This document shows positions 39,825 to 62,659 of a stretch of 64,000 nucleotides of DNA, in pieces. The notes under the pieces are model-generated. The model saw only the letters and a list, made by a program, of their open reading frames with translations. It did not search any database and was not told the DNA's origin. The stretch is taken from IMG/VR virus record IMGVR_UViG_3300021964_009400, one strand, 5' to 3'. Source of the stretch: a virus. Lineage: Duplodnaviria > Caudoviricetes. Every line of letters begins with the position of its first letter. Position 1 is the stretch's first letter. The position numbers and the translations under genes were made by a program.

Positions 39825-42800
39825 ATGAACAAACTTTCACAATTTCTCGTAGAGAGTATATTGGAGGACAAAAGTCCTATTAAGAAGGTGGTAGTAATTT
39901 ATGGTGGTAGATTTCAACCATTCCATAAAGGACACTACGGCACATACCAACACCTTGTCAAAAAATTCGGTAAAAATAATGTTTTTATCAGTACTTCCAA
40001 CAAAGTAGAAAAACCAAAATCACCTTTTAACTTTAAAGAGAAGGTGAAAATCATGACTACGATGTTCAATATACCTAAATCAAAAATAGTACAGGTAAAA
40101 AACAATTATGCTCCAACCGAAATCCTCAAAAAATACGATAAAAACACAACCGCCTTCATAGCCGTTGTTGGTGAAAAAGATTCCAATAGATTCCTTGGTG
40201 GAAAATATTTCAAACCATGGAAAGGGCATGCTGAAGTTGGTTATGAGGATGGTGGTTATGTTTATGCTGCTCCATCAAGTGGTGGTGGTATTAGTGGAAC
40301 TGAAACTCGAAATGGTTTATCAGTTGGTTCTGATGACCAGAAGAAGTCTTTCTTTAAATCTCGTGCATATGGAAAGTTCAATGCAACGATTTTTAATATG
40401 ATTACTGATAAACTTAATGAAGGGGTAATCGAGATTTCTAAAGAAAGGATAGAAGAATGGCTCATCAACGAGAGTTCGGTGATGAGTTCAGGTCAAGTGG
40501 ATGATGGGCCAAACTTCTTTATTCCAAACTACGATATATTTCAACGAGTATCTGCTAAAAGAGCAGCAAAGATTGGATATGAGGTTGTAAATATGATTAC
40601 TTCTAAAGAAATCGAAGATTACTATGACCATCCAAATTATCCTGATGGACCAGTAAAAGCAGTTACTTATTTCCCTGCTGGTGTTTTGGGTGCAAAAACC
40701 GCAACCAACCAAGTTGATATCTACTCATCTAAAGCATATTCGAATTGGTACAAACATATTACTCGTAAGGCATCAATGGTAGGTTATGAGTTGGTTAAAT
40801 CACTTGCAAGTAAAGAAGATTTAAAACAAGATAAGGAACAATCAGTAGATGATGCAAAAGGAGATAAGGTTTCTCAGAAAGAATACGAAGCATCTTTAAA
40901 TGAGGCAATCAATCTACCAGTAGAAGTTGGTGATACTATCTTAATGGGTAGATTTAAAAACAAAAAGGTTAAAGTAAAAACTATTGGTAAAGATGAACAT
41001 GGAATGCCAACTATCAATGGAAAAAAGGTTGTAACTTTCCGACTAATGAAAGAAGGTTTCGTAACCGAGCTCGCGGGAACTGAAGTAAAATGTGAAAAAT
41101 GTAATCATTCTTGGGATATAGAAGAAGATGATACAGAAAAGTACCTTTGCCACTCCTGTGGTTGGGATTCACAACAACAAGAATATGATTATGCGGCATT
41201 TGATTCTTGGCAAGAAAAAATGGGTATATCTGAAGATGTGGATATAGATGAAAGAAGTAAGGGTAGATTAAGACCAGCAGATTTATTGAGAAGAAAAGCA
41301 GCGATGGCTGGTAAACGAGCTCAAATTGCAAGAAGAAGAAAAAGAACAATGATGAGGAGAAAACCTCTTTCCAAGCTTAAAAAGATTGCATACAAAAAAG
41401 CATACCTACAAGTTTATGATGAGTTTATGCAGGATTTATTTCCTGGTATTGCTAAAAAAGATTTATCAATTCAACAAGCAAAGATAGTTCATAAGAATGT
41501 ATTAAGAAAAAAGAAAAGAGTTCTTAAAAGAGCAAGATTTAGATTCTTACCAGCATTAAGAGATAAAGAAGCAGAAAAGTTTGGTGGTAAAAATAATACA
41601 AACGAATTAATGATTGGATATGCAGGACCTGAAGATATGAAAAGGTTTGCAAAGAGAAATAAAGAATATAGAAAAGATGCTGAATCAAGTAAAGAGTATC
41701 AATACGAACCAATCAAAGAACAATCAGATAAAAAAACACAATGTATCAATAACTTTGTAGAATATGCTTGTAAAAGATTAAAACTTGATGGTAATCCGAA
41801 GATTTCATTAATGAGTGGTACAGAATATTCAGATACTCACAAAAGTTTAGGTGGTTTCAATCCACAAACAAAAGAAATCTATGTTGCAACTGAAAATAGA
41901 TTAACTGCTGATATTTGTAGAACTATTGCACATGAATTAGTTCATAGAAAACAAGATGAGATGGGATTATTAAAAGACCCAATCAAAGATGGAGCAGATG
42001 GTTCACCGATTGAAAACCAAGCTCATGCAGTAGCAGGTATTATTATGAGAGAATATGGTAGAATTGATGATACAATCTACCAAGAAGAAATTAACTCTTT
42101 TTATTACGATGATTTAGCAAAGTATGTTTACAAAAAAAGAGGAGTGATAAATAAATTGTTCAAAAACTTATCTGATGAGAAAAAGGCTGAGTATTTAGAA
42201 AAACTTTACATCAAATTATTCCAAGGACCAACTTCAAGAATGGTTCACAGAGATATCAAAGGTAAAGGTGGTGATTTATTGAAGATGTTAAGAAAAGATA
42301 GAAGATTAAAAGAAGGTAATGAACTTAAAAAATTAGAAATTACCGATTTTAAATCCCTCTTTAAGAAAATGCCAAGTGATTTACAAAAGAGAGTTTACAA
42401 TTTAAAGAACTTTGGACAGAGAGCAGATAAACATCCAGAGGGTAATGTACTTAAACACACAATCACAGTTGTAAATCGTTCAATCAAAGAAGATGATATT
42501 GATATTGCAATCGCAGCAATGTTCCACGATATAGGAAAAGATGAAACTGCTGGTATTCATCCAAAGAAAGGACACATTACACACTTTGGACATGAGAAAG
42601 TATCAGCATCTTTAGTAAAGAAGTATAAAAAGTTTATAGAATCAGTTGGTGGTAATCCAGCAAATGTATTTTACATTGTTAAAAACCATATGAGATATAA
42701 ACAACTATCTGTAATGACACCTAAAAAAGTAAATAAACTAAAATCATTCAGAGCATTCGATAAATTAGGTAAATTCTCTAAACACGATAGAGCAGGGTTA

Positions 42801-46574: not shown

Positions 46575-48167
46575 ATGGCTAAAGCTTCTTTAAAGGATAT
46601 AATTAAACTTGAGTATCAGAAATGTGCTGGAGACCCAATCTACTTTATGAAAAAGTATTGTATGATTCAACATCCTGTGCGTGGTAAGATTCCTTTTCAC
46701 TTATATCAATTTCAAGAAAGAACTTTAGAAGAATTTACAGAACATCGTTATAACATTATCCTTAAATCTCGACAAACAGGTATCTCAACCTTAACTGCGG
46801 GATTTTCTCTTTGGAAAATGTTATTCAATCAAGATTTTAATGTATTAGTAATTGCAACTAAACAAGAAGTTGCTAAGAACCTTGTAACGAAGGTTCGTGT
46901 GATGAATCAATACTTACCATCGTGGTTAAAACAAACAACAGTAGAGGATAACAAGTTATCTCTGAGATACTCGAATGGTTCTCAGATAAAAGCAACATCA
47001 GCTGCTGGAGATGCTGGTCGTTCTGAAGCACTATCCTTATTAGTATTTGATGAGGCAGCATTCATTGATAAGATTGAAGATATATGGGTATCGGCACAAT
47101 CTACCTTATCTACTGGTGGTAACGCAATTATCCTTTCAACACCAAATGGTGTAGGAAACTTCTTTCACAAAACTTGGGTAGGTGCTGAAGAAGAAACAAA
47201 TACATTCAATACAATTAGATTACATTGGTCAGTACATCCAGAAAGAGACCAAAGTTGGAGAGATGAACAAGAGGTACTATTAGGACCAAAGGGAGCAGCA
47301 CAAGAATGTGATTGTGATTTTGTTTCTTCTGGTGATACTGTAATAGACCCACAACTCTTACAATTCTATAAAGAATCATTTGTACAAGAACCAATGGAGA
47401 AAACAGGTTTCGATGGAAACTTGTGGAAATGGGAATATCCAAACTATAATAAATCTTATATGGTAGTTGCCGATGTTGCTCGTGGAGATTCAACCGATTA
47501 TTCAGCATGTCATGTAATTGATATTGAAAATGCATCACAAGTAGCAGAATATAAAGGTAAATTAGATACAAAAGATTTTGGAAACTTTTTAGTTTCACTT
47601 TCAACTGATTATAATAATGCATTGTTAGTAGTTGAGAACGCAAACATTGGTTGGGCAGTAATACAACAAGTAATTGATAGAGGATATGGAAATCTTTTTT
47701 ATATGAGTAAGGATTTAAAGTATGTAGATGTAGAAAATCAATTAACAAACAAATACAGAGCACAAGATAGAGGATTAGTTGCAGGATTTAGTACAACATC
47801 TAAAACTCGACCTTTGATTATATCAAAGTTGGAACAATACATAAGAGAAAAATCTGTAACCATTCGTTCATCAAGAACCATAGATGAATTATTTACATTT
47901 ATATGGAGTGGGAATCGAGCAGAAGCAATGAGAGGATATAATGATGATTTAACAATGTCATTATCTATTGGATTGTGGGTTAGAGATACCGCATTGAGAT
48001 TAAGACAAGAAGGAATTGATTTAACAAAACAAGCATTGGGTGGTATTGGAGCACACCAATTAGATATTGCAGGTATGGGATTCGGTGGAAACACTCAGTT
48101 AGAAGAAAACCCATGGAAACAACGAGTAGGGGATAGAGATGAGGATTTAACTTGGTTAATTAAATAA
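46575..48167 (+). CDS. terL: Terminase large subunit (T4 gp17-like)
   Basis: KSRQTGIST Walker A; LLVFDEAAF Walker B; ILSTPNG; YMVVADVARG and NDDL nuclease motifs. Confidence 0.95.
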   Translation: MAKASLKDIIKLEYQKCAGDPIYFMKKYCMIQHPVRGKIPFHLYQFQERTLEEFTEHRYNIILKSRQTGISTLTAGFSLWKMLFNQDFNVLVIATKQEVAKNLVTKVRVMNQYLPSWLKQTTVEDNKLSLRYSNGSQIKATSAAGDAGRSEALSLLVFDEAAFIDKIEDIWVSAQSTLSTGGNAIILSTPNGVGNFFHKTWVGAEEETNTFNTIRLHWSVHPERDQSWRDEQEVLLGPKGAAQECDCDFVSSGDTVIDPQLLQFYKESFVQEPMEKTGFDGNLWKWEYPNYNKSYMVVADVARGDSTDYSACHVIDIENASQVAEYKGKLDTKDFGNFLVSLSTDYNNALLVVENANIGWAVIQQVIDRGYGNLFYMSKDLKYVDVENQLTNKYRAQDRGLVAGFSTTSKTRPLIISKLEQYIREKSVTIRSSRTIDELFTFIWSGNRAEAMRGYNDDLTMSLSIGLWVRDTALRLRQEGIDLTKQALGGIGAHQLDIAGMGFGGNTQLEENPWKQRVGDRDEDLTWLIK

Positions 48168-48198: not shown

Positions 48199-48579
48199 AT
48201 GATTTCAATGAAAAAATTACTTAATGAAAACGAATCTTATTGTAACGAATACTTTGTAGAAAACTATCATGATATAAAAGAATTTTGTGAATTCATGAAA
48301 TCGTATAAATCTGATATCAACGAGGCAGAATATCAAGGAAGAAAAGTAAAACTTGGTAAACCAATGCAGGGTGATGTTAAAAAGTTTAAAGTATATGTTA
48401 AAAATCCCCAAGGTAATGTAGTAAAAGTAAACTTTGGTCATAAAGGAAAAGGTGGAGAGAAAACAATGTCAATCAAAAAGAATAATCCTGAAAGGAGAAA
48501 ATCTTTTAGAGCAAGACATAACTGTGATAACCCAGGTCCAAGACACAAAGCAAGATACTGGTCTTGTAGAAAATGGTAA
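48199..48579 (+). CDS. Putative head-internal protein (acidic leader, basic C-terminal domain)
   Basis: N-terminus MISMKKLLNE; DINE junction; basic domain KFKVYVKNP..RRKSFRARHNC..RYWSC. Confidence 0.55.
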   Translation: MISMKKLLNENESYCNEYFVENYHDIKEFCEFMKSYKSDINEAEYQGRKVKLGKPMQGDVKKFKVYVKNPQGNVVKVNFGHKGKGGEKTMSIKKNNPERRKSFRARHNCDNPGPRHKARYWSCRKW

Positions 48580-48619
48580 AAACAAAACAATAAAGGTTAT
48601 AATTTAAATTAGAAATAAA

Positions 48620-50356
48620 ATGGCAGATACTTCATTTTTTGGTAGATTAACAAAACTATTCAGAGCCCAAGCGGTGGTTACCATCGATAAAAAGGGTAGA
48701 AGAAAAGTAGTTGATACTGATGAAAGACAACAAACGAATTTATCATCTTTAAGAGATAGATATACAAAGATTCAGAAATCTTTCTTTGAACAAGCAGGTG
48801 GTGCACAATCAATGGCATACCAACAAGTTCGTAGAGAAGTTTTTCGTGATTACGATGCAATGGATAACGACCCGATATTAGCATCAGCATTAGATATATA
48901 CGCAGATGAATCAACACTAAAAAACGAATTTGGTGATACTCTAGGAATCGTATCAGATAATGAAAAGATTCAAGAAATATTAAGAAACTTATTTTATGAT
49001 ATCCTTAATGTTGAATTCAACTTATGGCCATGGGTAAGAAATATGTGTAAGTATGGAGATTTCTTCTTAGGTTTAGAAATAGCTGAAGGTAAAGGTATTG
49101 TGAATATTACACCTCACTCTGTTTACAATACAGAAAGATTAGAAAGAACAGACCCAACAAATCCAAATTCAGTAAAGTTTAAAATTACTGAGGACCCGAA
49201 TGGTAAAGAAGAATACGAAAACTTTGAAATTGCTCACTTCAGATTGTTAGCAGATACAAACTGGTTACCTTATGGTAAATCTATGATTGAGAATGGTAGA
49301 AGATTGTGGAAACAATTATCTCTAATGGAAGATGCTATGTTAATCCATAGAATCATGAGAGCACCAGAAAAAAGAGTATTCAAAGTGGATATAGGAAATA
49401 TCCCTCCAACAGAGGTTGATAACTATATGCAGAGAATCATCAATAAAATGAAGAAAGTTCCTTTCGTTGATAGAAATACTGGTGATTACAACTTAAAGTA
49501 CAATATGCAAAATCTAACTGAAGATTTTTACTTACCAGTTAGAGGTGGTGATAGTGGTACAAACATTGAAAACCTTGCAGGTTTAGAATATGCAACTATC
49601 GAAGATATTGATTATTTAAAGAACAAATTATTTGCAGCTCTTAAAATTCCAAAAGCATATTTAGGATACGAAGAACAAGTAAATGGTAAAGCAACACTTG
49701 CAGCAGAAGATGTTAGATTTGCAAGAACAATCGAAAGAATTCAAAGAACAGTAATTTCAGAATTAACTAAAATTGCAATTGTACATTTATACTCACAAGG
49801 TATTACAGATTCAGAAATGACAAACTTTGAATTACAATTAGTAAATCCATCATTTATTTACGAACAAGAAAAAATAAACCTTTGGTCAGAAAAAGTTAGA
49901 TTGGCACAAGATGTGATTGGATTGAATATGTTATCTAAAGATTGGGTATATTCCAATATATTTAAAGTTTCTGATAATGAAAAGGATGATGAACAAACTA
50001 AAATTATTGAAGATATCAAAGATAGATATAGATATAGAATGATTGAAGATGAGGGTAATGACCCTGCATTAGAAGATGAAGAACCAGATGATATCGAAGA
50101 ATCTTTAGAAAAATTAAAAGCAGAAATTAAAGATAAAGGTGGTAGACCAAGAGAAGGAAATACATATGGTAAAGATAAGCATCCTTATGGTAGAGACCCA
50201 CTTGGTGATAAAGAAAGAAAATCTGCAAGAAAAAATACAACTTCCGAAGAAAAAGCAATACAATATGTAAGTGGAATTGCTGCAAAAAGAAAGTATTTAC
50301 ATGAAATGAAAGATATGTTAGATGAGGAAAATATCCTCAAAGATACAGAAAATTAA
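48620..50356 (+). CDS. Portal protein (T4 gp20-like)
   Basis: LMEDAMLIHRIMRAPEKRVFKVDIGNIP; EDFYLPVRGG; LFAALKIP. Confidence 0.95.
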   Translation: MADTSFFGRLTKLFRAQAVVTIDKKGRRKVVDTDERQQTNLSSLRDRYTKIQKSFFEQAGGAQSMAYQQVRREVFRDYDAMDNDPILASALDIYADESTLKNEFGDTLGIVSDNEKIQEILRNLFYDILNVEFNLWPWVRNMCKYGDFFLGLEIAEGKGIVNITPHSVYNTERLERTDPTNPNSVKFKITEDPNGKEEYENFEIAHFRLLADTNWLPYGKSMIENGRRLWKQLSLMEDAMLIHRIMRAPEKRVFKVDIGNIPPTEVDNYMQRIINKMKKVPFVDRNTGDYNLKYNMQNLTEDFYLPVRGGDSGTNIENLAGLEYATIEDIDYLKNKLFAALKIPKAYLGYEEQVNGKATLAAEDVRFARTIERIQRTVISELTKIAIVHLYSQGITDSEMTNFELQLVNPSFIYEQEKINLWSEKVRLAQDVIGLNMLSKDWVYSNIFKVSDNEKDDEQTKIIEDIKDRYRYRMIEDEGNDPALEDEEPDDIEESLEKLKAEIKDKGGRPREGNTYGKDKHPYGRDPLGDKERKSARKNTTSEEKAIQYVSGIAAKRKYLHEMKDMLDEENILKDTEN

Positions 50357-50374
50357 TTAAACTTATATAATTTT

Positions 50375-50383
50375 ATATTTATA
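50375..50383 (+). promoter_or_regulatory. Putative late promoter motif ATATTTATA
   Basis: 40 nt upstream of ATG 50424. Confidence 0.5.
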
Positions 50384-50423
50384 ATAGGGAAAATTTACTA
50401 TATCATAATAGGAAAAAATAACG

Positions 50424-51296
50424 ATGAGAAAAATAAAACATTCAAAATTTAAAAATACTGGTTTTCTTTTTGAACTCCTTACAAGGCAAGTTACCCTTGA
50501 AATAATCAATGGTAGTGAAGAAAAAGCTAAAGGAATTATTAAAGAATTCTATGGTAAAGGTACTGAAATGTCCAAAGAATTGAGATTATTCAACCTTTTA
50601 ATAAATGAAAAATATAATACAGAATCAAAAGCTGAAAAGTTTATTGATGCTATTTTAGAAGCCCATACAAAAATAGATTATAAAAAAATTCAACGAGAAA
50701 AATATAATCTTGTAAAAGCTATCAAGGAAAACTTCGAAATTAACAATTTCTTATCTTCCCCGGTAACAAACTACAAAATTTTAGCTTCAATCCATAAGTT
50801 GTTTGAAGGTAAAAAGAATGATATCCTTGATATTAAAGATGTATTTAATTCAAAACTAACTCTTGTAGAGCATATCTCATCAAATTCCCCATCTACATTA
50901 AAAGAAAAAGAAGATAAGTTAGTAGAAGAATACAGAAAACAAGAGAAAGATTTAAGATTATTGACATACAAAATTCTTGTTGAAACTTTTAACAAAAAAT
51001 ATACAACTCTAGATGAATCACAAAAAGGTTTATTAAGAGAATATATTAATAATGTTAATAACACTTCAAAGTTCAACGAGTATTTCGAATCAGAATTAAT
51101 CAAAACTATTACTGAATTACATACAATGTATAAAGGTATGAAGGATAAGATTACAAAAATCAAGTTGAAAGAAACTATTAATGTTTTAAAAAAGCAAAAA
51201 ATTGGTAAAAAGATTACCGATGAACAAGTTTCAGCTTTGATGATGTCTTATGAATTGATTAAGGAGATAAAAAATGTCAATGGAAAAAAATCTTAA
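50424..51296 (+). CDS. Hypothetical head-module protein (helical)
   Basis: 290-aa ORF directly after the portal; no recognised motif. Confidence 0.6.
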   Translation: MRKIKHSKFKNTGFLFELLTRQVTLEIINGSEEKAKGIIKEFYGKGTEMSKELRLFNLLINEKYNTESKAEKFIDAILEAHTKIDYKKIQREKYNLVKAIKENFEINNFLSSPVTNYKILASIHKLFEGKKNDILDIKDVFNSKLTLVEHISSNSPSTLKEKEDKLVEEYRKQEKDLRLLTYKILVETFNKKYTTLDESQKGLLREYINNVNNTSKFNEYFESELIKTITELHTMYKGMKDKITKIKLKETINVLKKQKIGKKITDEQVSALMMSYELIKEIKNVNGKKS

Positions 51297-52206
51297 AGAA
51301 ATCTTAGATGAAATTCTTGATGAAGTTCAAAAAGAATTAGATGAAGCCACTACAACAGGTAATGTAGATGGTTATCAAACTCCTTACGCATTCTCCAAAG
51401 GAAACAAACACAAAAAAAGAAAAAAGAAAATAGCAACACAACTTGGTTATTCAGTTGTGGGTGGTGATATTGATAATATCAATGAAGCAGCAATAACTTA
51501 TGGTATTGAATATAAATCATCTAAAAAAGATAGAAAATTCAAAAAAGCATCTTTAACAAAAACAACACACAATCCTAATATAGATAAAATGATGATAAAG
51601 GCTATTTCTAAAGATGCCAAATCATTAGCAAAACAAGATGGGTGGGTTGATTATAGAATAACCAAAGATGGTGTACCTGTAAAAGAATCAGTAAACGAGG
51701 GAAAATTCAAACCATCACAAGTTCGTTCAGCAATCTCAAGAGTTAAAAAACAACTAATGAGAAAGTGGAAACAAAAAGGTGGATATGAAAACTTTGGACA
51801 AAAAGAACTTTCTCAAATGAAAGATAAGTTTGATTACAATCCATATGGTTCATCAGATGAAAGACAGATTTCAAAGATGTTAGATGGGTTTGATAATTGG
51901 GCTATGAACTATGATGGTAATATGAGAGAAGATATTAACGAAGCTAAAGTAAAGAGACCAGTAAATCGTTGGTTAGAATTAAAAAACGATGAATCAATGC
52001 ATCCTCATAAGAAGATGGCAATGGGTCTAAAAGAATTAAAGTATCAATTAAGAGAAGTTGAGAAGTTTTTCAATTGGTATAATAAAATCAAAACGATTAA
52101 TGAGTTGGATTCTGATAAGTATTGGAAAAGAACAAATAAACATATTTATACTATAAAAGAGAGATTAATCAAAATAGCAAAAACAATACAGGAGATTGAA
52201 AAATGA
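51274..52206 (+). CDS. Putative modular head-internal protein
   Basis: AAGGAG 7 nt upstream; NLKEILDEILDE leader; segments delimited by LDE, INE, ESVNE and DINE. Confidence 0.6.
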   Translation: MSMEKNLKEILDEILDEVQKELDEATTTGNVDGYQTPYAFSKGNKHKKRKKKIATQLGYSVVGGDIDNINEAAITYGIEYKSSKKDRKFKKASLTKTTHNPNIDKMMIKAISKDAKSLAKQDGWVDYRITKDGVPVKESVNEGKFKPSQVRSAISRVKKQLMRKWKQKGGYENFGQKELSQMKDKFDYNPYGSSDERQISKMLDGFDNWAMNYDGNMREDINEAKVKRPVNRWLELKNDESMHPHKKMAMGLKELKYQLREVEKFFNWYNKIKTINELDSDKYWKRTNKHIYTIKERLIKIAKTIQEIEK

Positions 52207-52529
52207 AAATAACAAGAGAACAATTAAAAAATATAGTCAGAGAAACTTTATTAGAAGAATCTGAATACCAAAAGTTCTTTAAAAAGGCATTAGAAAAGGC
52301 TGGTAAATCATTACCTTCAATGTCCGATGAAGAAAAGAAAGCATTCTTTAACAAAATCCAAAAAACTTGGAAAGGTAGAGGAAAGAAAAATGAAAGATTT
52401 GGCAGAGGTGCAGTAGGACCTACTTTTGGTGGACAAGAAATAGATGAAAAATTAAATTCATCTGAAATTGGTAAAGGTGATAATAAGAAACCATCTAAAG
52501 ATGCTTCTGATTCATCTAATATAAAGTAA
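52203..52529 (+). CDS. Putative prohead core/internal protein
   Basis: MKITREQLKNIVRETLLEE leader; GGAG RBS. Confidence 0.55.
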   Translation: MKITREQLKNIVRETLLEESEYQKFFKKALEKAGKSLPSMSDEEKKAFFNKIQKTWKGRGKKNERFGRGAVGPTFGGQEIDEKLNSSEIGKGDNKKPSKDASDSSNIK

Positions 52530-52533
52530 AAAA

Positions 52534-52710
52534 ATGACCAAAAGAGAATTGTATGATATCATCAATGAAGAAATCGTTAATGTTAAAAAAGGAACTATTA
52601 ACGAAGAACTCACCGAATCTGATAAGGATATAATCCGAAAAATTATCAGACAAGAAGTATCGGCAATCTTTTTTGATTTATTTAAGAAAAGAAAAACTTG
52701 GGGAGCATAA
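52534..52710 (+). CDS. 58-aa putative prohead core protein (not in ORF track)
   Basis: MTKRELYDIINEEIVNVKKGTINEELTESDKDIIRKIIRQEVSAIFFDLFKKRKTWGA*; TAATG-coupled to the protease. Confidence 0.6.
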   Translation: MTKRELYDIINEEIVNVKKGTINEELTESDKDIIRKIIRQEVSAIFFDLFKKRKTWGA

Positions 52711-53303
52711 TGAACAATTTATTAATAGAAACAAGATTATTCGAAGGAAGGGTAAACGAAGATGATAGTGGAAGAACTATCGTTAAGGGTATTCTACAAA
52801 GAGCTGGTGCAGAAAATCAGAATGGTAGAATATATCCTAAACCTATCCTTATGAGAGAGGCAAAGAAATACGAAACACTTATTAAAGAAAGAAGAGCATT
52901 AGGTGAATTAGACCATCCTGATTCTTCTGTAATCAACTTAAAGAATGTATCTCACAATGTAAGAGAAATTCATTGGGATGGTGATGATTTAGTAGGAACA
53001 GTTGAGATTTTACCAACTCCAAGTGGTAACATCTTAAAAGAACTTCTACAAGCAGGTATTCTATTAGGTATATCATCAAGAGGTATGGGTTCAGTAGAAC
53101 CTTTATCAGGTGGTAAAGTTCAAGTAGGTGAAGATTTTGAATTGATTGGTTGGGATTTTGTTTCTAACCCATCTACTCATGGAGCATTTATGGTTCCTAT
53201 GAACGAATCTGTGAACAAACAACTTCAATCACAAACAGCAGTTTGTAATGAATGGTGTAAGGCACAAGATATGATGAGAGAAATTATAACAGAATTAAAT
53301 TAA
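52710..53303 (+). CDS. Prohead core protease (T4 gp21-like)
   Basis: AENQNGRIYP, ALGELDHP, LGISSRGMGS, WDFVSNPST; start ATG 52710, not TTG 52698. Confidence 0.95.
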   Translation: MNNLLIETRLFEGRVNEDDSGRTIVKGILQRAGAENQNGRIYPKPILMREAKKYETLIKERRALGELDHPDSSVINLKNVSHNVREIHWDGDDLVGTVEILPTPSGNILKELLQAGILLGISSRGMGSVEPLSGGKVQVGEDFELIGWDFVSNPSTHGAFMVPMNESVNKQLQSQTAVCNEWCKAQDMMREIITELN

Positions 53304-53307
53304 GGTT

Positions 53308-53493
53308 ATGGGATTTAATGTACAGGACTTTATGTCCAAAAATAAGTTTAAACTTGGAACAGTTGAAAGAGAAGTTGGTTCTAAAACTGCAAAGAGTTAT
53401 AACGATATAAGAAAAACTAATTATGAAGTTAAGTTAACCGAAGATGGTAAACTTGATTTATACACACATAAAAAGGAGAAAAAAGAATTATGA
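53308..53493 (+). CDS. Small hypothetical protein (61 aa)
   Basis: Tightly packed ORF after the protease. Confidence 0.55.
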   Translation: MGFNVQDFMSKNKFKLGTVEREVGSKTAKSYNDIRKTNYEVKLTEDGKLDLYTHKKEKKEL

Positions 53494-54974
53494 TTAAATT
53501 GGGTGGACTTATCGATTTAAAACCTTTACAAGAAGAAAAGGCTTTTACTGCTACAAGTAAAGAAACTGGTAATGTTTCTGTATTTAAAACAAAAGCAGCT
53601 AGAGATGCTGCAATCAAAGCAGGTACTCATGAAAAAAGAAAAACCGATAAAGATACCGCAGTTGATGTTCCTGGTGGAGAAGATAAACCTAAAGTAAACA
53701 TCTTTAAAAGAGATAGTGATAGAGATTCAAAGGAACGCCTAAAGAAAATGAAGGCACAACAAAAATCTGCTGAACCTAAAAAAGAAAGACCTGATGAAGC
53801 TCCAAAGAGACCAGTAGATATGGATGATGAGGAACATGGAGTAGAAGATTTCAGAGAATTTGGTAATTTGTATTCTGATGATATGACACCTGAACAAAAA
53901 GATGAATATGATAGTCTTACTAGTGATTTAGAAATGGCAGATGCTGATTTAATAGATGCACGAGATTTATCTGACCAAGATTTTGAAGAGGCGGCATCTG
54001 AATATAATGAAATCGAATCTAAACTTTACGATTTAATCGATAGTATTTACGAACCTAAATCAGAACCTAAAAATGATAAAGAAGAACCTAAAGCAGAACC
54101 ATCTAAACCTAAATTAGAATCAGACCCTCAGGCTGAAAAAGTTGCTGATAAGATTTCCAAAAAATATGGCATCACTCCTCAAAAAATGGGTGAAGAAGAT
54201 TATAAGGTTGCAATCGGTAGAGCTGTTTATTCGGCATTAACTAACTCTAACTTCCATACTGAAGCAAGAGAGTTAATTGCAGTATTAGAAGATAAACCAG
54301 AACTTGCAAAAAGACCGGAGTATCCTTCAATATCAGATGATGATTACGATACGAAAATGGATGCAATCAGAAAAAAATATGCTTCTACATATAGTGAAAG
54401 AGATGATTATTCATCGGCATTGGGTAGAGAAACTTCAGATGCAGCTGAATGGGATGGAGTTAAATCAGTAGGAACTCTAACTAAACAACTACGAGATAAT
54501 GGTATGAGTGATTTTGCTGATAAAATCGAATCTATCTTTGATAAAAAAGAATATATGAAGAAAGAAGGTAGAATTAGTATTTCAAATCTTGTTAAAGAAA
54601 ATATAATCAACGAAGGAACTCGTTCACAAGTTGGTATCATTGATAGAAGTGGTAAGATTGCATCAGCATATGTTCACTACGATGGTTATCCATCAAATAT
54701 GAAACCAGGTCTTAAAAAACATATGAAGAATGAAAAAGATGTTCTTCAACTTATTAAAAAAGGTGGTGCAAGAGGAATCTATGATGATAAAGATATTGAA
54801 TACTACCAGAAGGGTGGAAAACCAATTAAAGGTAATTCAAAAGATTTTGGTAAATATGTAGATACTGCCGATAGAAATGGTAGTGCTGAATATGTTTACC
54901 TTTACAATATGAAAGATAAGAAGTGGTATTATGCTGATGTATATGGTGATAAAAAATTAAAAAAATTATTTTAA
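53490..54974 (+). CDS. Putative modular head-internal protein
   Basis: Leader MIKLGGLIDLKPLQE; FTAT..RDAAIKAGTHE module; acidic middle; after IINE a GTRSQVG..YVHYDGYP..YVYLY domain. Confidence 0.6.
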   Translation: MIKLGGLIDLKPLQEEKAFTATSKETGNVSVFKTKAARDAAIKAGTHEKRKTDKDTAVDVPGGEDKPKVNIFKRDSDRDSKERLKKMKAQQKSAEPKKERPDEAPKRPVDMDDEEHGVEDFREFGNLYSDDMTPEQKDEYDSLTSDLEMADADLIDARDLSDQDFEEAASEYNEIESKLYDLIDSIYEPKSEPKNDKEEPKAEPSKPKLESDPQAEKVADKISKKYGITPQKMGEEDYKVAIGRAVYSALTNSNFHTEARELIAVLEDKPELAKRPEYPSISDDDYDTKMDAIRKKYASTYSERDDYSSALGRETSDAAEWDGVKSVGTLTKQLRDNGMSDFADKIESIFDKKEYMKKEGRISISNLVKENIINEGTRSQVGIIDRSGKIASAYVHYDGYPSNMKPGLKKHMKNEKDVLQLIKKGGARGIYDDKDIEYYQKGGKPIKGNSKDFGKYVDTADRNGSAEYVYLYNMKDKKWYYADVYGDKKLKKLF

Positions 54975-54975
54975 G

Positions 54976-55185
54976 ATGAAACTAAAAGATTTATTACCAG
55001 AAGGATTTGTAGTAATGTACAAAGTGAGAAAAGACCTTAAGAATGTAAACATAGGTCCAGCTCAAGCATGGTATAAAGATAAATCTGATGCAGAAAAATT
55101 TTTAAAATCGGTTGAGAAAGATGGTGGTAAAGGAATGATTGTAAAGGATAAAGCACCAAAATCAAAAATCGATAGAGGAATATAA
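54976..55185 (+). CDS. Putative head-internal protein (69 aa)
   Basis: Leader MKLKDLLPE. Confidence 0.6.
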   Translation: MKLKDLLPEGFVVMYKVRKDLKNVNIGPAQAWYKDKSDAEKFLKSVEKDGGKGMIVKDKAPKSKIDRGI

Positions 55186-55476
55186 AAGGAGAGAACAATG
55201 AAACTAAAAGATATACTTAACGAAAGCAAAAATAATATTAGTGAGGCAAAAAAAGTTGACCCAAGAATAGCTGGTGATATTTTTGCAAGATATCTTATAG
55301 GAGATAGAACTGATGCAATAAGACAATTAGATAAATTAAAAAAAATTGCAAGTTTTGGAGTAATGGAGACGCCAGGAACAAAAGAATATAACCAACAATT
55401 CGCAGAACTCTCAGATAAAATTACAAAAGTAATTAGAGGAGTAATGTAATATTAAAGGAGAGAACAATGAAACTAA
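55185..55476 (+). repeat. 23-nt direct repeat covering RBS and first codons of adjacent genes
   Basis: AAAGGAGAGAACAATGAAACTAA at 55185-55207 and 55454-55476. Confidence 0.85.
55198..55449 (+). CDS. Putative head-internal protein (83 aa)
   Basis: Leader MKLKDILNE..NISE; AAGGAG RBS. Confidence 0.6.
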   Translation: MKLKDILNESKNNISEAKKVDPRIAGDIFARYLIGDRTDAIRQLDKLKKIASFGVMETPGTKEYNQQFAELSDKITKVIRGVM

Positions 55477-56225
55477 CCCAACTATTAAAAGAAAATGAAG
55501 AAAGACCTCTATCTAATGAGGTTAAAAGACATTTTCTTGAAATTGTTTCAACTTACAACAAGTATCAAGAATCAATGGATAGAAAATCAGATATTACTCA
55601 AGTAGCAGAAACCCTTGGTGGTATTACTGAAGCTGCTAGAACACTTGCAATCAAAGAAGCTGGTGATTGGTTCGATAAACATACTGTAAAGAGAAACATG
55701 AGTGAATTGGATAAGTTGGGTAAACAATTCGATAAAGTTGCTCTTGAGGCTCGTGCACTTGACCAAAGAATGGCAGGATTATACGAGGATATGGGACACA
55801 TCCTATCAAGATACTACAAGTTCGGTGAGATTACTGAAGATGAAATGAAAAACAGATTAGGTATCAACGAATCTAAAAAAGATTGTGGATGTGGATGTGG
55901 TGGAACAACAGTAGGTGGATGCAACGAATCAGTAAACAAAGAAACAATTACAGAACAATCTGTTGTAGTTCACAATAGAACACAAAATGGAAACATAGTT
56001 ACAGTATTAAAAGAATCTGATTTAAACGAAGAAGAAATGAAACTTTATGAGTTTGGTAAAAAAGTAACTCGGTTAATGGAAAAAAGTTGCCCAAATGACC
56101 CTGGTAAATGGGCAGCATCTAAAGCAGCAGCAAAAAAGAAGTTTGATGTATATCCTTCTGCATACGCTAATGGATGGGCTGCAAAAAACTACAAGGGTAA
56201 AGGTGGAACTTGGAAAAACTGTTAA
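55467..56225 (+). CDS. Putative modular head-internal protein
   Basis: Leader MKLTQLLKE; INE then CGCGCGG; ESVN; LME then basic module YPSAYANGW..YKGKGGTW. Confidence 0.6.
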   Translation: MKLTQLLKENEERPLSNEVKRHFLEIVSTYNKYQESMDRKSDITQVAETLGGITEAARTLAIKEAGDWFDKHTVKRNMSELDKLGKQFDKVALEARALDQRMAGLYEDMGHILSRYYKFGEITEDEMKNRLGINESKKDCGCGCGGTTVGGCNESVNKETITEQSVVVHNRTQNGNIVTVLKESDLNEEEMKLYEFGKKVTRLMEKSCPNDPGKWAASKAAAKKKFDVYPSAYANGWAAKNYKGKGGTWKNC

Positions 56226-56234
56226 GGAGAAATT

Positions 56235-57482
56235 ATGGAATTCGTATCTTATATAGAAACAAGAAAAGGTAAAAAATTACTTAAGGTATTTAAATCTAAA
56301 AGAGCAGTAGATATGTTCTTAAAGAAAAATACCGATAAAATTTTATCAAAGAGCGGTATTGAATCAGTTGGTTCAATGTCTAAAAGAGATTGGGATTCTA
56401 AAGAAGCCAAATACGCAGTAAACGAAGTTGGTAAGGGTAGTAATTGGGCAGAAAAATATGTAAATGATACTAATTTATATAAAAAATTAAATTGGTATAT
56501 GAAGATGGGCAAAGGTGTTGAGAAAAAAATCAAAGGTAAAGAATTTGTAATAATGTCCGATGGCAGTGCTCTTATATGGAATGCCAAAACATCTGATTGG
56601 GAATTGTATAAACCAAAAAGAATAGATAAAAAAACAGGTAAACCAATTTATGAATCAGTAAACGAAGGTAAAAAAAGATACTACCAACAAGATAGAGTTG
56701 GTTCAGCAAAATACACAATCTCTTACCACGATGGTAAAAAGAAACATAAAGATGGTAGTGATTTCTTTGATATCCAAACTTTCAGAAACAAAAAAGATTT
56801 AGCAAAATTTGTAAACACTTTACACAAAGGTGGATATGTTTATGGATTTAATGAATCAGTAAACGAAACAAAATATAAAGTAGGTGATACTCTTGCAGAA
56901 GGATTAATAAATCCAAAATCAGGACACGAATACTTTCAACTTACTAAAAACACACCTGTAAAATATATTGCAGGACATTCTGGTTTAGGACTTACAACTC
57001 CTGGAGTTTTATTGAAAAACATACCTGGATTTATTGATGGTAAAAAGGGTGCGTATTTAATTGATTATCATGGTGCACTTTTTTATGTAGATTTAAAAAA
57101 GAAAGTTGCCGTTAGATTAGGATATGATTTAAGTAAACAACCTAAATTAAGGTATAAAACTAATTTTATCAGAGTTCCTCAGGCACCAGAATTTTCAGAT
57201 TGGAAAAGATATTTAAAAGAATCAGAAGATGGTGTACCACAAGGATACAATCCAATGGTAGAATCTAAAACGAAAGAAAGTAAAGTAATTCAAAAAATAC
57301 ACACATACACAAAAACTGAAAAAAAGTTTTATGACGAACTTGCAAAACATGAAGTAAGAATCGGACAAAACGATTATGCTAAATTTATTATTAACGCATT
57401 AAGAGGATTTGGTATCAATCCAAGAGAATTCAAAAGAATACCTGATGCCGAAGAAAAACTCTATCAAATAGTATCAAAATAA
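56235..57482 (+). CDS. Putative polyprotein of small modules
   Basis: Five or six segments separated by AVNE, ESVNE, FNESVNE, LKESE and VES; AAGGAG RBS. Confidence 0.6.
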   Translation: MEFVSYIETRKGKKLLKVFKSKRAVDMFLKKNTDKILSKSGIESVGSMSKRDWDSKEAKYAVNEVGKGSNWAEKYVNDTNLYKKLNWYMKMGKGVEKKIKGKEFVIMSDGSALIWNAKTSDWELYKPKRIDKKTGKPIYESVNEGKKRYYQQDRVGSAKYTISYHDGKKKHKDGSDFFDIQTFRNKKDLAKFVNTLHKGGYVYGFNESVNETKYKVGDTLAEGLINPKSGHEYFQLTKNTPVKYIAGHSGLGLTTPGVLLKNIPGFIDGKKGAYLIDYHGALFYVDLKKKVAVRLGYDLSKQPKLRYKTNFIRVPQAPEFSDWKRYLKESEDGVPQGYNPMVESKTKESKVIQKIHTYTKTEKKFYDELAKHEVRIGQNDYAKFIINALRGFGINPREFKRIPDAEEKLYQIVSK

Positions 57483-57493
57483 AGGAAAAAATT

Positions 57494-58885
57494 ATGAGAC
57501 TCAGAGACTTATTACCAGAACAAGAAACATTCACTGCTACTAACAAAAAGAGTGGAGAAACTGCGGTATTCAAATCTAAAGATTCAAGAGATGCAGCAAT
57601 TAAAGCAGGAACTCACGAACCTATTGAAAAGGGAGGTGATGAAAAATCTGATAAACAGAAATCACCTGGTAAAGTAAGTGGGAAAGATATGTTTAAACAT
57701 GCTTCTGATATCAAAAAAGATAAAGAAGAAACTCCAAAAGATAATCAAAAAGATTGGGATGGGAAAACACTTCCAAAAACTCCAGCTTTTAGTGGAGAAG
57801 AAAAGGTCAATTATTTGAATGATATAACTACTAGCATGGATATGTACAAAAGTGGTAAAGTGAATAGTAGTTGGGAAGCAAGAGATAAATATTTTGATGA
57901 ATTGTATAATAATACTATTTGGTCGTTGGAGGAGTTCATATATCAAACAGGATATAAACAAGGTGATTTTGACATAGATTCACTTCAAAAAAAAGTTGAT
58001 GAATTATATAAAGATGTAATGCGTGGTGCAGAACATACTGATGAAACAATGGGTAGAAAAATCTCACCTTCTCAGAACCAAGAAATTCAAAATGAAATAG
58101 GTAGAATAGCTAAAGAAATTTCTCAAAAAATTGACAACCCAACAGAACATACTCGAAAAGAGTGGGATAGAAGTATGCCAAAAAACTCTGATATGTTTGG
58201 TGGGGATGATAATCAAATAGATTTAGACCAAAAAGAGTTCAACTCAGGAAAAATTTGGTATCGTCAATCTGCTGAAGATATTAATAAAGAAGAAGGTTAT
58301 GATGGTTATATAGGAACTACTCAGAGGGTATATAATCAAATGAGAGATTGGCTTCGTTCCAATGCAAAACTCCATAGAGAAGAAGTATCCGATATGTTGC
58401 AAGGCCTTAGAAACAAAAGTTTGAAAATGCAAAAAGACGCAAAAAGATTTGATAAACTTTCAACCTTTCATAAGAGAGAAGTTGAAGATGAAATAGGTCA
58501 TTTAGCTAATTTAATTGGAAAAAAGTACAAACAACCAAAACCAAAACCTGAACCAAAACCTGAACCAAAATCAGAACCAAAATCAGAGCCAAAATCAGAA
58601 CCAAGGCCTGAACCAAGACCACAACCAAGGACTGAACCATCACCAGAAGAAAAGGCTAAAAAAGAATTAAGTGGTGCAACTGCTTTAGGATTTAGTGATA
58701 TAGAAAAATTAGGTTCTAAAGCTGCTAGTGATATTGATATGGCAGTTAGAAGAGACCCTAATTATACTCGTGGTAGTAGACCTGGTGATGATGATAGATT
58801 AAGAGCTAAAAAAGCAAAAGAATTAGGATATATAGATGAAGTTAAATCAATGAAACTAATAGATTTATTACCTAATGTAAAATAA
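57494..58885 (+). CDS. Putative modular head-internal protein
   Basis: Leader MRLRDLLPE; FTAT..RDAAIKAGTHE module; PEPK repeats; C-terminal IDE-VKSMKLIDLLP. Confidence 0.6.
   Translation: MRLRDLLPEQETFTATNKKSGETAVFKSKDSRDAAIKAGTHEPIEKGGDEKSDKQKSPGKVSGKDMFKHASDIKKDKEETPKDNQKDWDGKTLPKTPAFSGEEKVNYLNDITTSMDMYKSGKVNSSWEARDKYFDELYNNTIWSLEEFIYQTGYKQGDFDIDSLQKKVDELYKDVMRGAEHTDETMGRKISPSQNQEIQNEIGRIAKEISQKIDNPTEHTRKEWDRSMPKNSDMFGGDDNQIDLDQKEFNSGKIWYRQSAEDINKEEGYDGYIGTTQRVYNQMRDWLRSNAKLHREEVSDMLQGLRNKSLKMQKDAKRFDKLSTFHKREVEDEIGHLANLIGKKYKQPKPKPEPKPEPKSEPKSEPKSEPRPEPRPQPRTEPSPEEKAKKELSGATALGFSDIEKLGSKAASDIDMAVRRDPNYTRGSRPGDDDRLRAKKAKELGYIDEVKSMKLIDLLPNVK
58535..58639 (+). repeat. 12-nt tandem coding repeat (PEPK/SEPK/PEPR)
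   Basis: ccaaaacctgaa / ccaaaatcagaa units in frame. Confidence 0.85.
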
Positions 58886-59253
58886 TGCAACTCCAAGAAC
58901 TATGTAAGGAAATTATAGAAGAAAACAGATGTATCCATTGTGGAAACATTGTTAACGAAGATTTGCGTAATTGGTTCAAATCAAAGTGGGTTAACATTGG
59001 TAAGAAAGATAAAAGTGGAAAACACCCACCATGTGGAACAAGTGGTGATAAGAGTGGATATGCTAAATGTGTTCCAGCTTCAAAAGCTAAATCTATGAGT
59101 AAAAAAGAAAAAGAATCTGCAACTCGTAGAAAGAGGACAGCACAAAACAAGGCAAATCGTGGTGGTAAGGCATCGAGAGGTCAAGGAAAGAAACCTATAA
59201 ATGTTTCTACCCATACTGGTGGAAAAAAGAGTGGGACCGGAAAAGGTTCATAA
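58885..59253 (+). CDS. Putative head-internal basic protein
   Basis: Leader MQLQELCKEIIEE; CIHC; VNE then DLRNWFKSKWVNIG..CG..KCVP basic domain. Confidence 0.55.
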   Translation: MQLQELCKEIIEENRCIHCGNIVNEDLRNWFKSKWVNIGKKDKSGKHPPCGTSGDKSGYAKCVPASKAKSMSKKEKESATRRKRTAQNKANRGGKASRGQGKKPINVSTHTGGKKSGTGKGS

Positions 59254-59294: not shown

Positions 59295-59618
59295 ATGAGT
59301 AAACACCCAAAATTAGTATCTGTACAAGTTAAGCACAAAGATATTAATAAAGCACTAAAAATTTTAAAAAGAAGAATCAACGATTCAGGTCATCTACAAG
59401 AGTTAAGAGATAGAAAGTATTTTGAAAAACCATCTGTTGTTAAAAGAAAAGCAAATCAACAAGCTAGAAGAGAACAAGAAAGAGAAACTATTTTAGAAAA
59501 AATAGAAAATGGTAATACAACAGTCAGATTAAAAACTCGTAAAAAAAGAAAAATAAAATCAAAAAATAATGATTCTAAAAAGAAAGAAGATAAAAATTCT
59601 TCAAAATTAATTTCATAA
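59295..59618 (+). CDS. rpsU: Phage-encoded ribosomal protein bS21 with basic C-terminal extension
   Basis: INKALKILKRR...G.LQELRDRKYFEKPSVVKR..Q.ARR is the bS21 pattern; 107 aa. Confidence 0.85.
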   Translation: MSKHPKLVSVQVKHKDINKALKILKRRINDSGHLQELRDRKYFEKPSVVKRKANQQARREQERETILEKIENGNTTVRLKTRKKRKIKSKNNDSKKKEDKNSSKLIS

Positions 59619-59791: not shown

Positions 59792-61018
59792 ATGGCAAAT
59801 TCAAATTTATTGAAAGAAGCTATTGCTGATGCTAAAGCTGTTAGAGAAACTGCTATTGCTAATGCTAAAATCGCTCTTGAAGAAGCTTTCACTCCAAGAC
59901 TACAATCTATCCTTTCTCAAAAACTTCAACAAGAAATTGAAGGAGAAGATGAGGAAGAAGAATCAGTAGAAGAGGGAACTTATAACGCTGACGGTGAGGA
60001 AGAAATTACTGCTGAAGGTGAAGATAAGGAAGACGAGGAAGTTAATGAAGAGTACGATAAAGATGATGCTCCTGATGCAGGTGCTTCTGATATCGGTGAT
60101 GGAGACAACAAGCAACCAGCAGATGATGCTAATAGTTCATCAGATGTAGCTCAAGGAAACCCTGATACGGATGTTGAATCTAGTGAAGTAGGTTCTGAGG
60201 ATGAAAATTCTGAGAAAGCTGCTGAAATTAGTGAAAACGAAGAATCAGAAGAAGAAGATTCAGTAGAAGAAAACTACATGGAAGATTCTCACGAAGAAGA
60301 ATCAGACGAAGAAGAACTTGATTTGGAATCAATCATTAAGGAACTAGAGGCTGAACTTTCTGGAGAAGAAGGTGCAGACCACGAAGAAGAACTTGATGCT
60401 GAGGAAAAAGAAGAAGTTGAAGATATCGCTGATGACGCTGTCGGTTCTCATGAAGATGAGAAACACGATGAAGTGGAAGAAGAAATGTATTCTGAAGAAG
60501 AATCTGAAGAAGAAGATTTAGATGATGAAATTGATTTAGAAGAAATCCTAAGAGAAATGGGATATGGTTCTGATGAAGTTTCTGAAGGTGAAGATTCTGA
60601 AGAAGAAAAAGAAGAGGTTGAAGAAAACAACGAATTAGAAGAAACTAAAGCAGAACTAAGTGATGCAATTTCTACTATTAAAGAGTTGAAGTCTACAATC
60701 AATGAAGTAAATCTATTAAACGCTAAATTACTTTACACTAACAAATTGTTCAGAGCTTATGAACTAAACAACGACCAAAAACACAAAGTTGTTGAAACAT
60801 TAGACAGAACTAAAAATGTTAGAGAAGTAAAATTAGTATTCTCAACATTAGCTGAGAGTTTTAAAATAGGTGGAACTTCAAAAAAACAAAAACAAGCTAA
60901 AATCAACGAATCATTCGCATCTAAACCAGTTGCAAGTACTGCTCCTAAAAAGGAAGTAATTACTGAATCAACTAACACGATGGCTGATAGATTTAAGAAA
61001 TTAGCAAATATTAACTAA
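59792..61018 (+). CDS. Prohead core scaffolding protein (T4 gp22-like)
   Basis: Extremely acidic centre, coiled-coil ends; position directly upstream of the major capsid gene. Confidence 0.8.
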   Translation: MANSNLLKEAIADAKAVRETAIANAKIALEEAFTPRLQSILSQKLQQEIEGEDEEEESVEEGTYNADGEEEITAEGEDKEDEEVNEEYDKDDAPDAGASDIGDGDNKQPADDANSSSDVAQGNPDTDVESSEVGSEDENSEKAAEISENEESEEEDSVEENYMEDSHEEESDEEELDLESIIKELEAELSGEEGADHEEELDAEEKEEVEDIADDAVGSHEDEKHDEVEEEMYSEEESEEEDLDDEIDLEEILREMGYGSDEVSEGEDSEEEKEEVEENNELEETKAELSDAISTIKELKSTINEVNLLNAKLLYTNKLFRAYELNNDQKHKVVETLDRTKNVREVKLVFSTLAESFKIGGTSKKQKQAKINESFASKPVASTAPKKEVITESTNTMADRFKKLANIN

Positions 61019-61048: not shown

Positions 61049-62659
61049 ATGGCAAATTTTGATTTATCTAAACTTATGGAAGGAAAGAACCCACAACAAG
61101 TTATGCTTGCTGAGACAAGAGAACTTAAGTCAAAGTGGGATAGAACTGGACTTCTAGAAGGTTTAAACGAGAGAGAGCAATCTCAAATTTCTGTACTTCT
61201 TGAGAACCAAGCAAAACAATTACTTGATGAGGCAACTCAAACAGGTACTTCAGCTGGTTCAGAAGAATGGAGTGGTGTTGCTCTTCCTTTGGTAAGAAGG
61301 ATTTTTGGTGAAATAGCATCAAAAGAATTCGTTAGCGTTCAGCCAATGAACTTACCATCTGGTCTAATATTCTATTTAGACTTTAAATATGGAACTGCTC
61401 AACCAGGAAATCCTGGATTTAGCGGAAAATCACTTTTCGGTGGAACAGGTTCGGACTTAGGTTCAACTGACTCTGCAGTAAATGGTCTTTATGGAGAAGG
61501 AAGATTCGGATATTCAGTAAATGATGTATCTGATTCAGTTGCTTCAGGAGACATAACACTAGCATCAGCTTCATGGGCAGATGTACAATATGATGCATCA
61601 TTATCATCATCAGTTGCTGATGGTTCATTAGCAAAATTTACTTTCGCTCATAACGAACTAGTAAGACCTGATTTAGATGCAGTAAGAAGTTTTTACATTT
61701 CTTCATCAGATTTCGCTACTGCTGATGCATTTTACCCAGCACATTCAAAAGTATCTGGTGCTAACATTATAGTATTCGCTAAAACAAGTGGATTACCACT
61801 TGCTGATAGCTTAACTGTAAAGCATTCACAACAACCAGTTGCTGAAAACAGAGGTGACTTTGAAGATGGAAACGCTGGTGGTGTTTCTTCAGTAGGTGAA
61901 GATTTAGGTATTCCAGAAGTAGACCTAGAGTTAAAGTCTGAAGCAATCGTTGCTAAGACTAGAAAACTAAAGGCTGTATGGACACCTGAATTGGCTCAAG
62001 ACCTTAATGCTTACCACTCAATCGATGCTGAAGCTGAATTAACTTCTATGTTATCTGAGTACATCTCATTAGAGATTGACCTAGAAATCTTAGATATGTT
62101 AAAATCAAACGCTTTAACATCTGAATACTGGTCAGTAACTTTAGGTGAAGAGTATGATTCAAACAATACATCATGGGTAGCTGGAAGTAATTCTGCTGCT
62201 TACACTAAAAACTCTTGGTTCCAAACACTTGGTGCTAAGATTAATAAAGTAAGTAACAAGATTCACCAGTTAACTTTAAGAGGTGGAGCAAACTTTATTG
62301 TTGCTTCTCCAGATGTTTGTACGATTTTAGAATCAATCCCAGGATTTACAGTTTCTGCTGATAAAGATGCTTCATCTTTCGCAGCTGGTGTAACTACTGT
62401 TGGTTCTTTATCTAACAGATATACTGTGTACAAAAACCCTTATATGACTTCTAACGAAATCTTATTAGGATTTAAAGGTTCAAACTTCCTAGAAACAGGA
62501 GCAGTTTATGCACCTTATGTACCATTAATCATGACACCTCTTGTATATGACCCAACTAACTTTACACCAAGAAGAGGTGTAATGACTAGATACGCTAAGA
62601 AAATGGTAAGACCAGAATTCTATGGTAAAATCTATGTTAAAGATTTAGCTAACCTATAA
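61049..62659 (+). CDS. Major capsid protein (T4 gp23-like)
   Basis: PLVRRIFG..VSVQPMNLPSGLIFYL; KTRKLKAVWTPELAQDLNAYHSIDAEAEL; YAPYVPL; F.PRRGVMTRY. Confidence 0.97.
   Translation: MANFDLSKLMEGKNPQQVMLAETRELKSKWDRTGLLEGLNEREQSQISVLLENQAKQLLDEATQTGTSAGSEEWSGVALPLVRRIFGEIASKEFVSVQPMNLPSGLIFYLDFKYGTAQPGNPGFSGKSLFGGTGSDLGSTDSAVNGLYGEGRFGYSVNDVSDSVASGDITLASASWADVQYDASLSSSVADGSLAKFTFAHNELVRPDLDAVRSFYISSSDFATADAFYPAHSKVSGANIIVFAKTSGLPLADSLTVKHSQQPVAENRGDFEDGNAGGVSSVGEDLGIPEVDLELKSEAIVAKTRKLKAVWTPELAQDLNAYHSIDAEAELTSMLSEYISLEIDLEILDMLKSNALTSEYWSVTLGEEYDSNNTSWVAGSNSAAYTKNSWFQTLGAKINKVSNKIHQLTLRGGANFIVASPDVCTILESIPGFTVSADKDASSFAAGVTTVGSLSNRYTVYKNPYMTSNEILLGFKGSNFLETGAVYAPYVPLIMTPLVYDPTNFTPRRGVMTRYAKKMVRPEFYGKIYVKDLANL

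Follow-up and report, generated by a model that had tools for sequence, protein, structure and literature searches.

We analysed a 64-kb window out of the 84-kb record of an uncultured phage (IMGVR_UViG_3300021964_009400; ~30% G+C), in which a T4-type head module fills the right-hand third and the + strand carries all genes. About 11–13 genes of this phage begin with a common leader, an N-terminal segment of 7–15 residues with the consensus M-(I)-K/R-L-x-D/N/E/Q-L/I-L/I-x-E. By analogy with the capsid-targeting sequence (CTS) of T4 internal proteins, we consider it likely (probability roughly 0.7) that these leaders are T4-type capsid-targeting propeptides that are cleaved off, with the basic cargo staying with the DNA. 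What the sequences show is the motif with its enrichment, conservation and T4 register, the intact protease and the linkers of the tagged families; that the tagged proteins are targeted, cleaved, kept in the virion and delivered to the host is inferred. Most likely the leaders are an instance of the T4 mechanism already described, at work in a remote but abundant lineage, rather than a novel type of system; the modular cargo joined by internal linkers may prove to be a real variant of it.

Distribution and conservation of the leader

Ten N-termini quoted in the original prediction are all present in the window, and we refer to the genes by their start positions: MISMKKLLNE (48199-48228), MSMEKNLKEILDE (51274-51312), the 14-residue MKITREQLKNIVRE (52203-52244), MTKRELYDIINE (52534-52569), the long variant MIKLGGLIDLKPLQE (53490-53534), MKLKDLLPE (54976-55002), MKLKDILNE (55198-55224), MKLTQLLKE (55467-55493), MRLRDLLPE (57494-57520) and MQLQELCKE (58885-58911). 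The similar starts that it had noted on a polyprotein (MNKLSQFLVE, 39825-39854), the prohead protease (MNNLLIE, 52710-52730) and the scaffold (MANSNLLKE, gene 59792) are there as well, the scaffold resemblance being weak.

To define the leader we used a strict rule, h-x-x-h-h-x-E, which asks for a hydrophobic residue at each of P7, P4 and P3 and for a P1 Glu that falls inside the first 16 residues, and a loose rule, [LIVM]xE inside the first 16 residues. The strict rule is matched by 11 of the 22 genes between 39825 and 61100 vs 3 of the 54 others of the 84-kb record (Fisher p = 2.7e-5), the background of the strict heptad inside proteins being 0.0017 per position, and the loose rule by 13/18 head genes vs 6/31 other genes. 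As an independent test genome we used a complete 276-kb relative (G001; CheckV 100%), in which the strict rule finds 8/21 genes of the polyprotein-plus-head stretch vs 15/326 others (p = 1.2e-5); matches to a degenerate DNA pattern for the leader are confined to 98–116 kb of this genome, and the reversed control gives zero. The composition of the leaders is skewed also at positions outside the regular expression, with Lys or Arg at P8 in 54% and Asp, Asn, Glu or Gln at P5 in 87%. Leu occupies P7 in 85% and Leu or Ile occupies P4 in 90%, both positions being hydrophobic, at the sequence level, like Tyr4 and Phe7 of the T4 leader, while P3 is Leu, Ile, Val or Met in all leaders. Synonymous codon choice differs among leaders, so selection acts on the peptide itself. 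Most tagged starts are preceded by a ribosome-binding site. Two other accounts of the leader were rejected, namely a chance pattern, on these enrichment statistics, and a secretion signal, on the lack of a hydrophobic core and the acidic end.

Conservation was counted in 80 related loci (L003-L082). Orthologues retain the leader in 60/64 cases for 48199, 70/77 for 51274, 74/75 for 52203 and 71/74 for 52534, and in every case for the protease (80/80), 55467 (33/33) and 58885 (22/22). No leader was seen in these loci on the terminase (0/60), the portal (0/78), the 50424 protein (0/80) or the major capsid protein (0/18), and the 53308 and S21 proteins are likewise never leader-bearing. Orthologues hold P7, P4, P3 and P1 while P2, P5, P6 and P8 vary, and 12 cargo open reading frames of these loci, for which the window lacks a homologue, likewise begin M(I)KLxDILNE. 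Gene order is constant, and the gene content from protease to scaffold differs among close relatives. Further afield, leader-style starts occur in Flavobacterium phage immuto (for example MKKSQLRQIIKE and MRLLELLRE), in Microcystis phage Mel-JY01 and in an uncultured 484-kb phage of 40% G+C (for example MNIKKSKLRKIIRE and MKLKGILKE).

The 276-kb relative also has a second leader-like group at 230–236 kb (loci L180), remote from the head module as the T4 ip and alt genes are, with the starts MKLSEFKEAVKNVLRE, MTEKEVQKIINE and MIKLTSILNE and the degenerate forms MITLKSILED and MIKLKDMIS. One gene of this group is homologous to a cassette found in the head module of other relatives.

The enzyme presumed, from its sequence, to process the leaders is a prohead protease of the gp21/S77 family (52710-53303; PF03420, 3e-26), which matches the T4 gp21 structure 5JBL at 3e-16. 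Its His69, Ser122/123 and Asp149 are invariant in an alignment with T4 gp21, leaving the catalytic triad intact in sequence. The ATG at 52710, with a GGGGAG ribosome-binding site, is a likelier start than the TTG at 52698. Towards its C-terminus, MNE↓SVNK (53202-53219; arrows mark predicted or known cuts) aligns with ITE↓S of T4 gp21. A complex prediction of the protease with the 54976 protein scored 0.00, and, having been run without controls, is evidence for neither side. Among the structural proteins, the acidic scaffold-like protein (59792-61018; isoelectric point (pI) 4.1) is a weak member of the tagged set, its P1 Glu being Gln or Asn in immuto and Mel-JY01. For the gp23-like major capsid protein (61049-62659) we predict a maturation cut behind residue 61 (LLDE↓A), where an invariant Glu-Ala pair lines up with the FLTE↓A site of T4 gp23, the known cut between Glu65 and Ala66.

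Internal linkers and modular cargo

A second motif of the tagged proteins is ES(V/I)NE followed by Gly or Ala. The pattern [LIV]NE[AG] is observed 9 times in the 4285 residues of the tagged proteins vs 0.35 expected from shuffles (26-fold enriched), and once in the 22,731 residues of the other proteins vs 2.55 expected. In relatives its density is 2.5–7.5 per 1000 residues in the 51274, 52203, 53490, 56235 and 48199 families, low in the 55467 family (0.57 per 1000 residues), 0 in 58885, and zero in the portal, terminase and 50424 protein. The linker-bearing families differ several-fold in length, and the number of sites rises with length (r = 0.57–0.78), for example in the 51274 family (134–887 residues, r = 0.62) and the 56235 family (262–680 residues, r = 0.78). 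In an alignment of the 55467 family (A3), extra modules are inserted exactly at xNE sites, with xNE on both flanks.

Predicted cuts also match the points where PHROG domains begin, which are residue 376 in 53490, about residue 40 in 48199 and residue 26 in 58885. The phrog_1987 domain stands behind INE↓G here, and in relatives directly behind a short leader, MIKLTELLKE(D/G)(V/I)INE↓G. Judging from these sequence patterns, the ES(V/I)NE-(A/G) linkers are probably further cut sites of the protease. The ESVN linker is written with the same 14 nucleotides, GAATCAGTAAACGA, in 4 of its 5 copies in the window (51685, 55926, 56652 and 56853), and this common stretch could also favour exchange of modules. 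As a side observation, the P2 Asn of cut-type sites is nearly always encoded by AAC despite the AT-rich genome.

The tagged proteins of the head region range from small basic proteins to long modular ones. Between terminase and portal, 48199 encodes a basic protein of 126 residues (48199-48579) in which INE↓A, behind residue 42, is a candidate internal site; its phrog_7595 domain begins near residue 40. The 310-residue modular protein of 51274 (51274-52206) has two INE↓A sites, behind residues 71 and 223, as well as ESVNE↓G at 51685-51699, and is followed by a basic protein of 108 residues (52203-52529) and a protein of 58 residues (52534-52710). Gene 53490 (53490-54974) encodes an acidic modular protein of 494 residues with an FTAT...RDAAIKAGTHE domain and an IINE↓G site (54603-54614) that precedes the phrog_1987 domain; it also contains a short EPKSEPK stretch. 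The next two genes are basic cargo candidates of 69 residues (54976-55185) and 83 residues (55198-55449). Homologues of 54976 occur in just 8 of the 80 related loci, marking it as a variable cassette, and 55198 has zero homologues in them.

Gene 55467 encodes a protein of 252 residues (55467-56225) with a hypervariable Cys-Gly/NESVN linker (55923-55940), at which relatives carry inserted modules. A Cys-Gly run (CGCGCGG...GGC, 55880-55925) stands before the NESVN linker and is kept in most relatives with variable length. The 415-residue basic modular protein of 56235 (56235-57482) has ESVNE linkers at 56652-56666 and 56853-56867. The 463-residue protein of 57494 (57494-58885) contains an FTAT domain paralogous to that of 53490 and, at 58515-58640, a Pro-Glu-Pro-Lys/Ser-type repeat (KPEPKPEPKSEPKSEP...), or PEPK-type repeat, that forms a low-complexity spacer. 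Its last 11 residues (58849-58885), MKLIDLLPNVK, are a leader-like fossil, in frame and just before the next tagged gene, that recurs in one relative only and may have been left behind when a cassette was lost or when leaders recombined. That next gene, 58885 (58885-59253), encodes a very basic, Cys-rich protein of 122 residues with weak DUF5872 and phrog_23735 matches and a candidate VNE↓D site after residue 25, the PHROG domain starting at residue 26.

The cargo is mostly basic (pI 9.5–10.1), with 53490 acidic. That the sequence after each leader is unrelated between genes, as originally claimed, is mostly true, and fails for two pairs: 53490 and 57494 have a domain of ~35 residues in common directly behind the leader (27/42 identical, E = 1e-11), and 51274 and 56235 have weak modules in common. 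Searches of Pfam, PHROGs and the ESM Atlas with the cargo proteins returned only DUF5872-like matches and PHROG families without annotation.

The largest leader-bearing product is a multi-enzyme protein of 1785 residues (39825-45182), whose Pfam domains are cytidylyltransferase-like, HD and poly(A)-polymerase/CCA-type; a C-terminal KxDG ligase-like motif was read by eye. The leader with its Glu at position 10 is retained in 75/77 orthologues, which vary from ~1000 to 2100 residues through module gain and loss. We found no relatives in which the polyprotein is divided into separately tagged genes; module content differs instead. Its internal [LIVM]NE[AG] sites are poorly conserved, being absent in 43/72 orthologues, and packaging of this enzyme therefore stays speculation. 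More broadly, we would put forward only tentatively, and regard as rather doubtful, the idea that the head cargo consists of cleavable polyproteins in which the linker is both cut site and recombination joint, the 1785-residue enzyme being delivered ready-made with the DNA.

Relation to the T4 system and alternative explanations

In T4, gp21 cuts after L/I-x-Glu, and the ten N-terminal residues of IPIII are enough for packaging, with residues 4 and 7 assigned to targeting and residues 8 and 10 to processing by mutagenesis (PMC9026906). The T4 genome encodes MKTYQEFIAE twice, and Tyr4, Phe7, Ile8 and Glu10 of this leader correspond to the four conserved positions of the present leaders, P7, P4, P3 and P1, respectively. 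The same register is found in T4 gp24 (MAKINELLRE) and gp21 (MNEPQLLIE), and T4 gp22 starts MLKEQLIAE. Among the T-even phages, a conserved CTS precedes internal proteins that are themselves diverse (PMC3012670). The leaders described here resemble the T4 CTS of IPII and IPIII, and the related propeptides of IPI, Alt and gp24, in being short N-terminal segments ending in hydrophobic-x-Glu, in having a gene for a homologous S77 protease within the head module, and in the placement of a common leader on mostly basic, mostly unrelated cargo that varies among close relatives. With an S77 protease carrying the His-Ser-Asp triad, a short leader ending in L/I-x-Glu whose P7, P4, P3 and P1 coincide in register with IPIII residues 4, 7, 8 and 10, and one leader on diverse, polymorphic cargo, the proposed close analogy to the T4 CTS is supported at the sequence level.

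The two systems also differ. The consensus here is MKLxDLLxE, whereas T4 has MKTYQEFIAE; the majority of the tagged genes sit within the head module, from protease to scaffold, whereas T4 ipII, ipIII and alt lie outside; many of the proteins here are multi-module with a stereotyped ES(V/I)NE-(A/G) linker; and ~11–13 tagged genes compare with 5–6 short leaders in T4. Two further claims of the original prediction did not survive this comparison. The leaders do not form an address code of their own, the register being identical to that of T4 IPII/III, gp24 and gp21, and the system is not much larger than that of T4, which has about ten gp21 substrates. The array of injected effectors proposed along with them stays hypothetical. 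In phiKZ, 201phi2-1 and SPN3US, a prohead protease related to that of T4 cleaves many inner-body or ejection proteins behind a Glu, and their propeptides are believed to direct proteins to the prohead interior. However, the proteases of that type need a small P3 (S/A/G-x-E) and most of the propeptides exceed 100 residues, whereas P3 here is Leu, Ile, Val or Met, never small, and the leaders are 7–15 residues long, which does not fit a phiKZ-type inner-body propeptide. A survey of the literature on far-T4 and marine phages found neither virion proteomes of this lineage nor a description of these leaders.

On the T4 analogy, the amphipathic leader would attach the protein to the scaffolding core through its hydrophobic P7 and P4 during prohead assembly. 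The gp21-family serine protease would then recognise the hydrophobic P3 together with Glu and cut after the P1 Glu inside the shell, and the same enzyme would also cut the ES(V/I)NE-(A/G) linkers that join modules. The mostly basic fragments would remain with the DNA, as T4 internal proteins do.

Several points weigh against this account. Virion presence and cleavage of the tagged proteins are predictions from sequence. The 56235 protein has the linkers and lacks the N-terminal leader. The strict regular expression was written after viewing the data of this window, which is why it was tested on independent sequence by later application to independent genomes, and it finds background matches in 4–6% of other genes. 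Distant relatives have Asn or Asp in place of the P1 Glu on the protease, and Gln or Asn on the scaffold. Finally, an AlphaFold2 model of 55467 (29 sequences) has a mean predicted local distance difference test score of 49; the structure of the leader is thus weakly modelled, and the model is too poor for a fold search.

We judge it unlikely that the tagged proteins are instead prohead-core assembly proteins like gp67, gp68 and gp22, which would be targeted, cut, degraded to peptides and expelled, with no delivered effectors. Such a role would suit the order of genes, which as in T4 runs portal, small tagged proteins, protease, scaffold and capsid protein. The three genes 51274, 52203 and 52534 stand between portal and protease, the place of T4 genes 67 and 68, and are conserved in all relatives; these three may therefore be assembly proteins that are degraded. 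The many internal cut-type sites would yield small fragments, 53490 is acidic like scaffold proteins, and 52203 weakly resembles the scaffold (E = 9e-6). The protease resembles self-processing T4 gp21, with a start of MNNLLIE↓T vs MNEPQLLIE↓T and a C-terminal MNE↓S vs ITE↓S, and multiple internal h-x-E sites occur here too. However, the comparison with gp67 and gp68 detected no similarity in sequence, and the present proteins are not acidic but basic, with lengths that vary greatly between relatives. Most tagged proteins have the high pI of DNA-associated T4 internal proteins, the genes from protease to scaffold vary as cassettes, as is expected of host-interaction proteins and seen for the T-even internal proteins, and folded PHROG-family domains come after the predicted cuts, all of which speaks against this role.

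Two further explanations leave the leader uncleaved or without any function as a peptide. It is improbable that it is an amphipathic helix that serves in oligomerisation or in docking to the membrane or the portal, or that it arose through selection on the translation start, even though bacterial starts often carry Lys (AAA) at position 2, a short helix appears in the low-confidence 55467 model, and distant relatives tolerate the P1 substitutions on their protease and scaffold. Start-codon context cannot explain the invariant Leu/Ile at P7, P4 and P3 plus the P1 Glu, nor the restriction to the head module, and an uncleaved helix would not account for the recurrence of the h-N-E motif internally at domain junctions or for a register equal to that of experimentally cleaved T4 leaders. 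We give very little credence to the idea that the common starts are relics of duplication or recombination at the DNA level. Traces of such events exist, in that 55198 and 55467 have 13 nucleotides upstream and the first 10 nucleotides in common, and the repeated linker DNA and the fossil at the C-terminus of 57494 point the same way. Most leaders, however, differ in synonymous codons, their orthologues vary at the four free positions while holding the other four, and the motif persists to phages with 51–57% capsid-protein identity and different GC content.

If the leaders act as T4-type targeting propeptides, h-x-x-h-h-x-E leaders and ES(V/I)NE linkers beside an S77 protease would yield a list of capsid-packed, possibly injected proteins, and the rule would apply to a very common group of uncultured marine phages (>500 related contigs by protease). 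Injected proteins are hard to detect by homology, and those of T4 include anti-restriction factors. Although the finding reveals no new mechanism, the conservation of the T4 targeting register down to ~27% capsid-protein identity supports the CTS as a general loading route of T4-like phages. That T4-like phages might load varied proteins by this route was anticipated by T4 researchers (PMC9026906).

Lineage and neighbouring genes

By capsid-protein identity, the nearest named phages are the uncultured 484-kb phage (57%) and Mel-JY01 (54%), followed by immuto (51%), Rhodothermus phage RM378 (39%) and T4-like Aeromonas phages (~27%), which places the window in the "far-T4" group. A megablast search of the head region against named phages gave zero matches. 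A protease search of IMG/VR returned 516 relatives, many at 85–100% identity, and the lineage is thus common.

The head module further includes the large terminase (46575-48167) and a gp20-type portal (48620-50356; PF07230, 3e-69). Directly 3′ of the portal, 50424-51296 encodes a basic protein of 290 residues that starts MxIKHSKYKNTG and lacks a leader, cut-type sites and any family match; its length and sequence are conserved in all relatives, also in immuto and Mel-JY01. Between the cargo genes and the scaffold lies a ribosomal protein S21 homologue (59295-59618; PF01165, 2e-13), a gene that is kept in all relatives examined and corresponds to an annotated rpsU at the same place in Mel-JY01.

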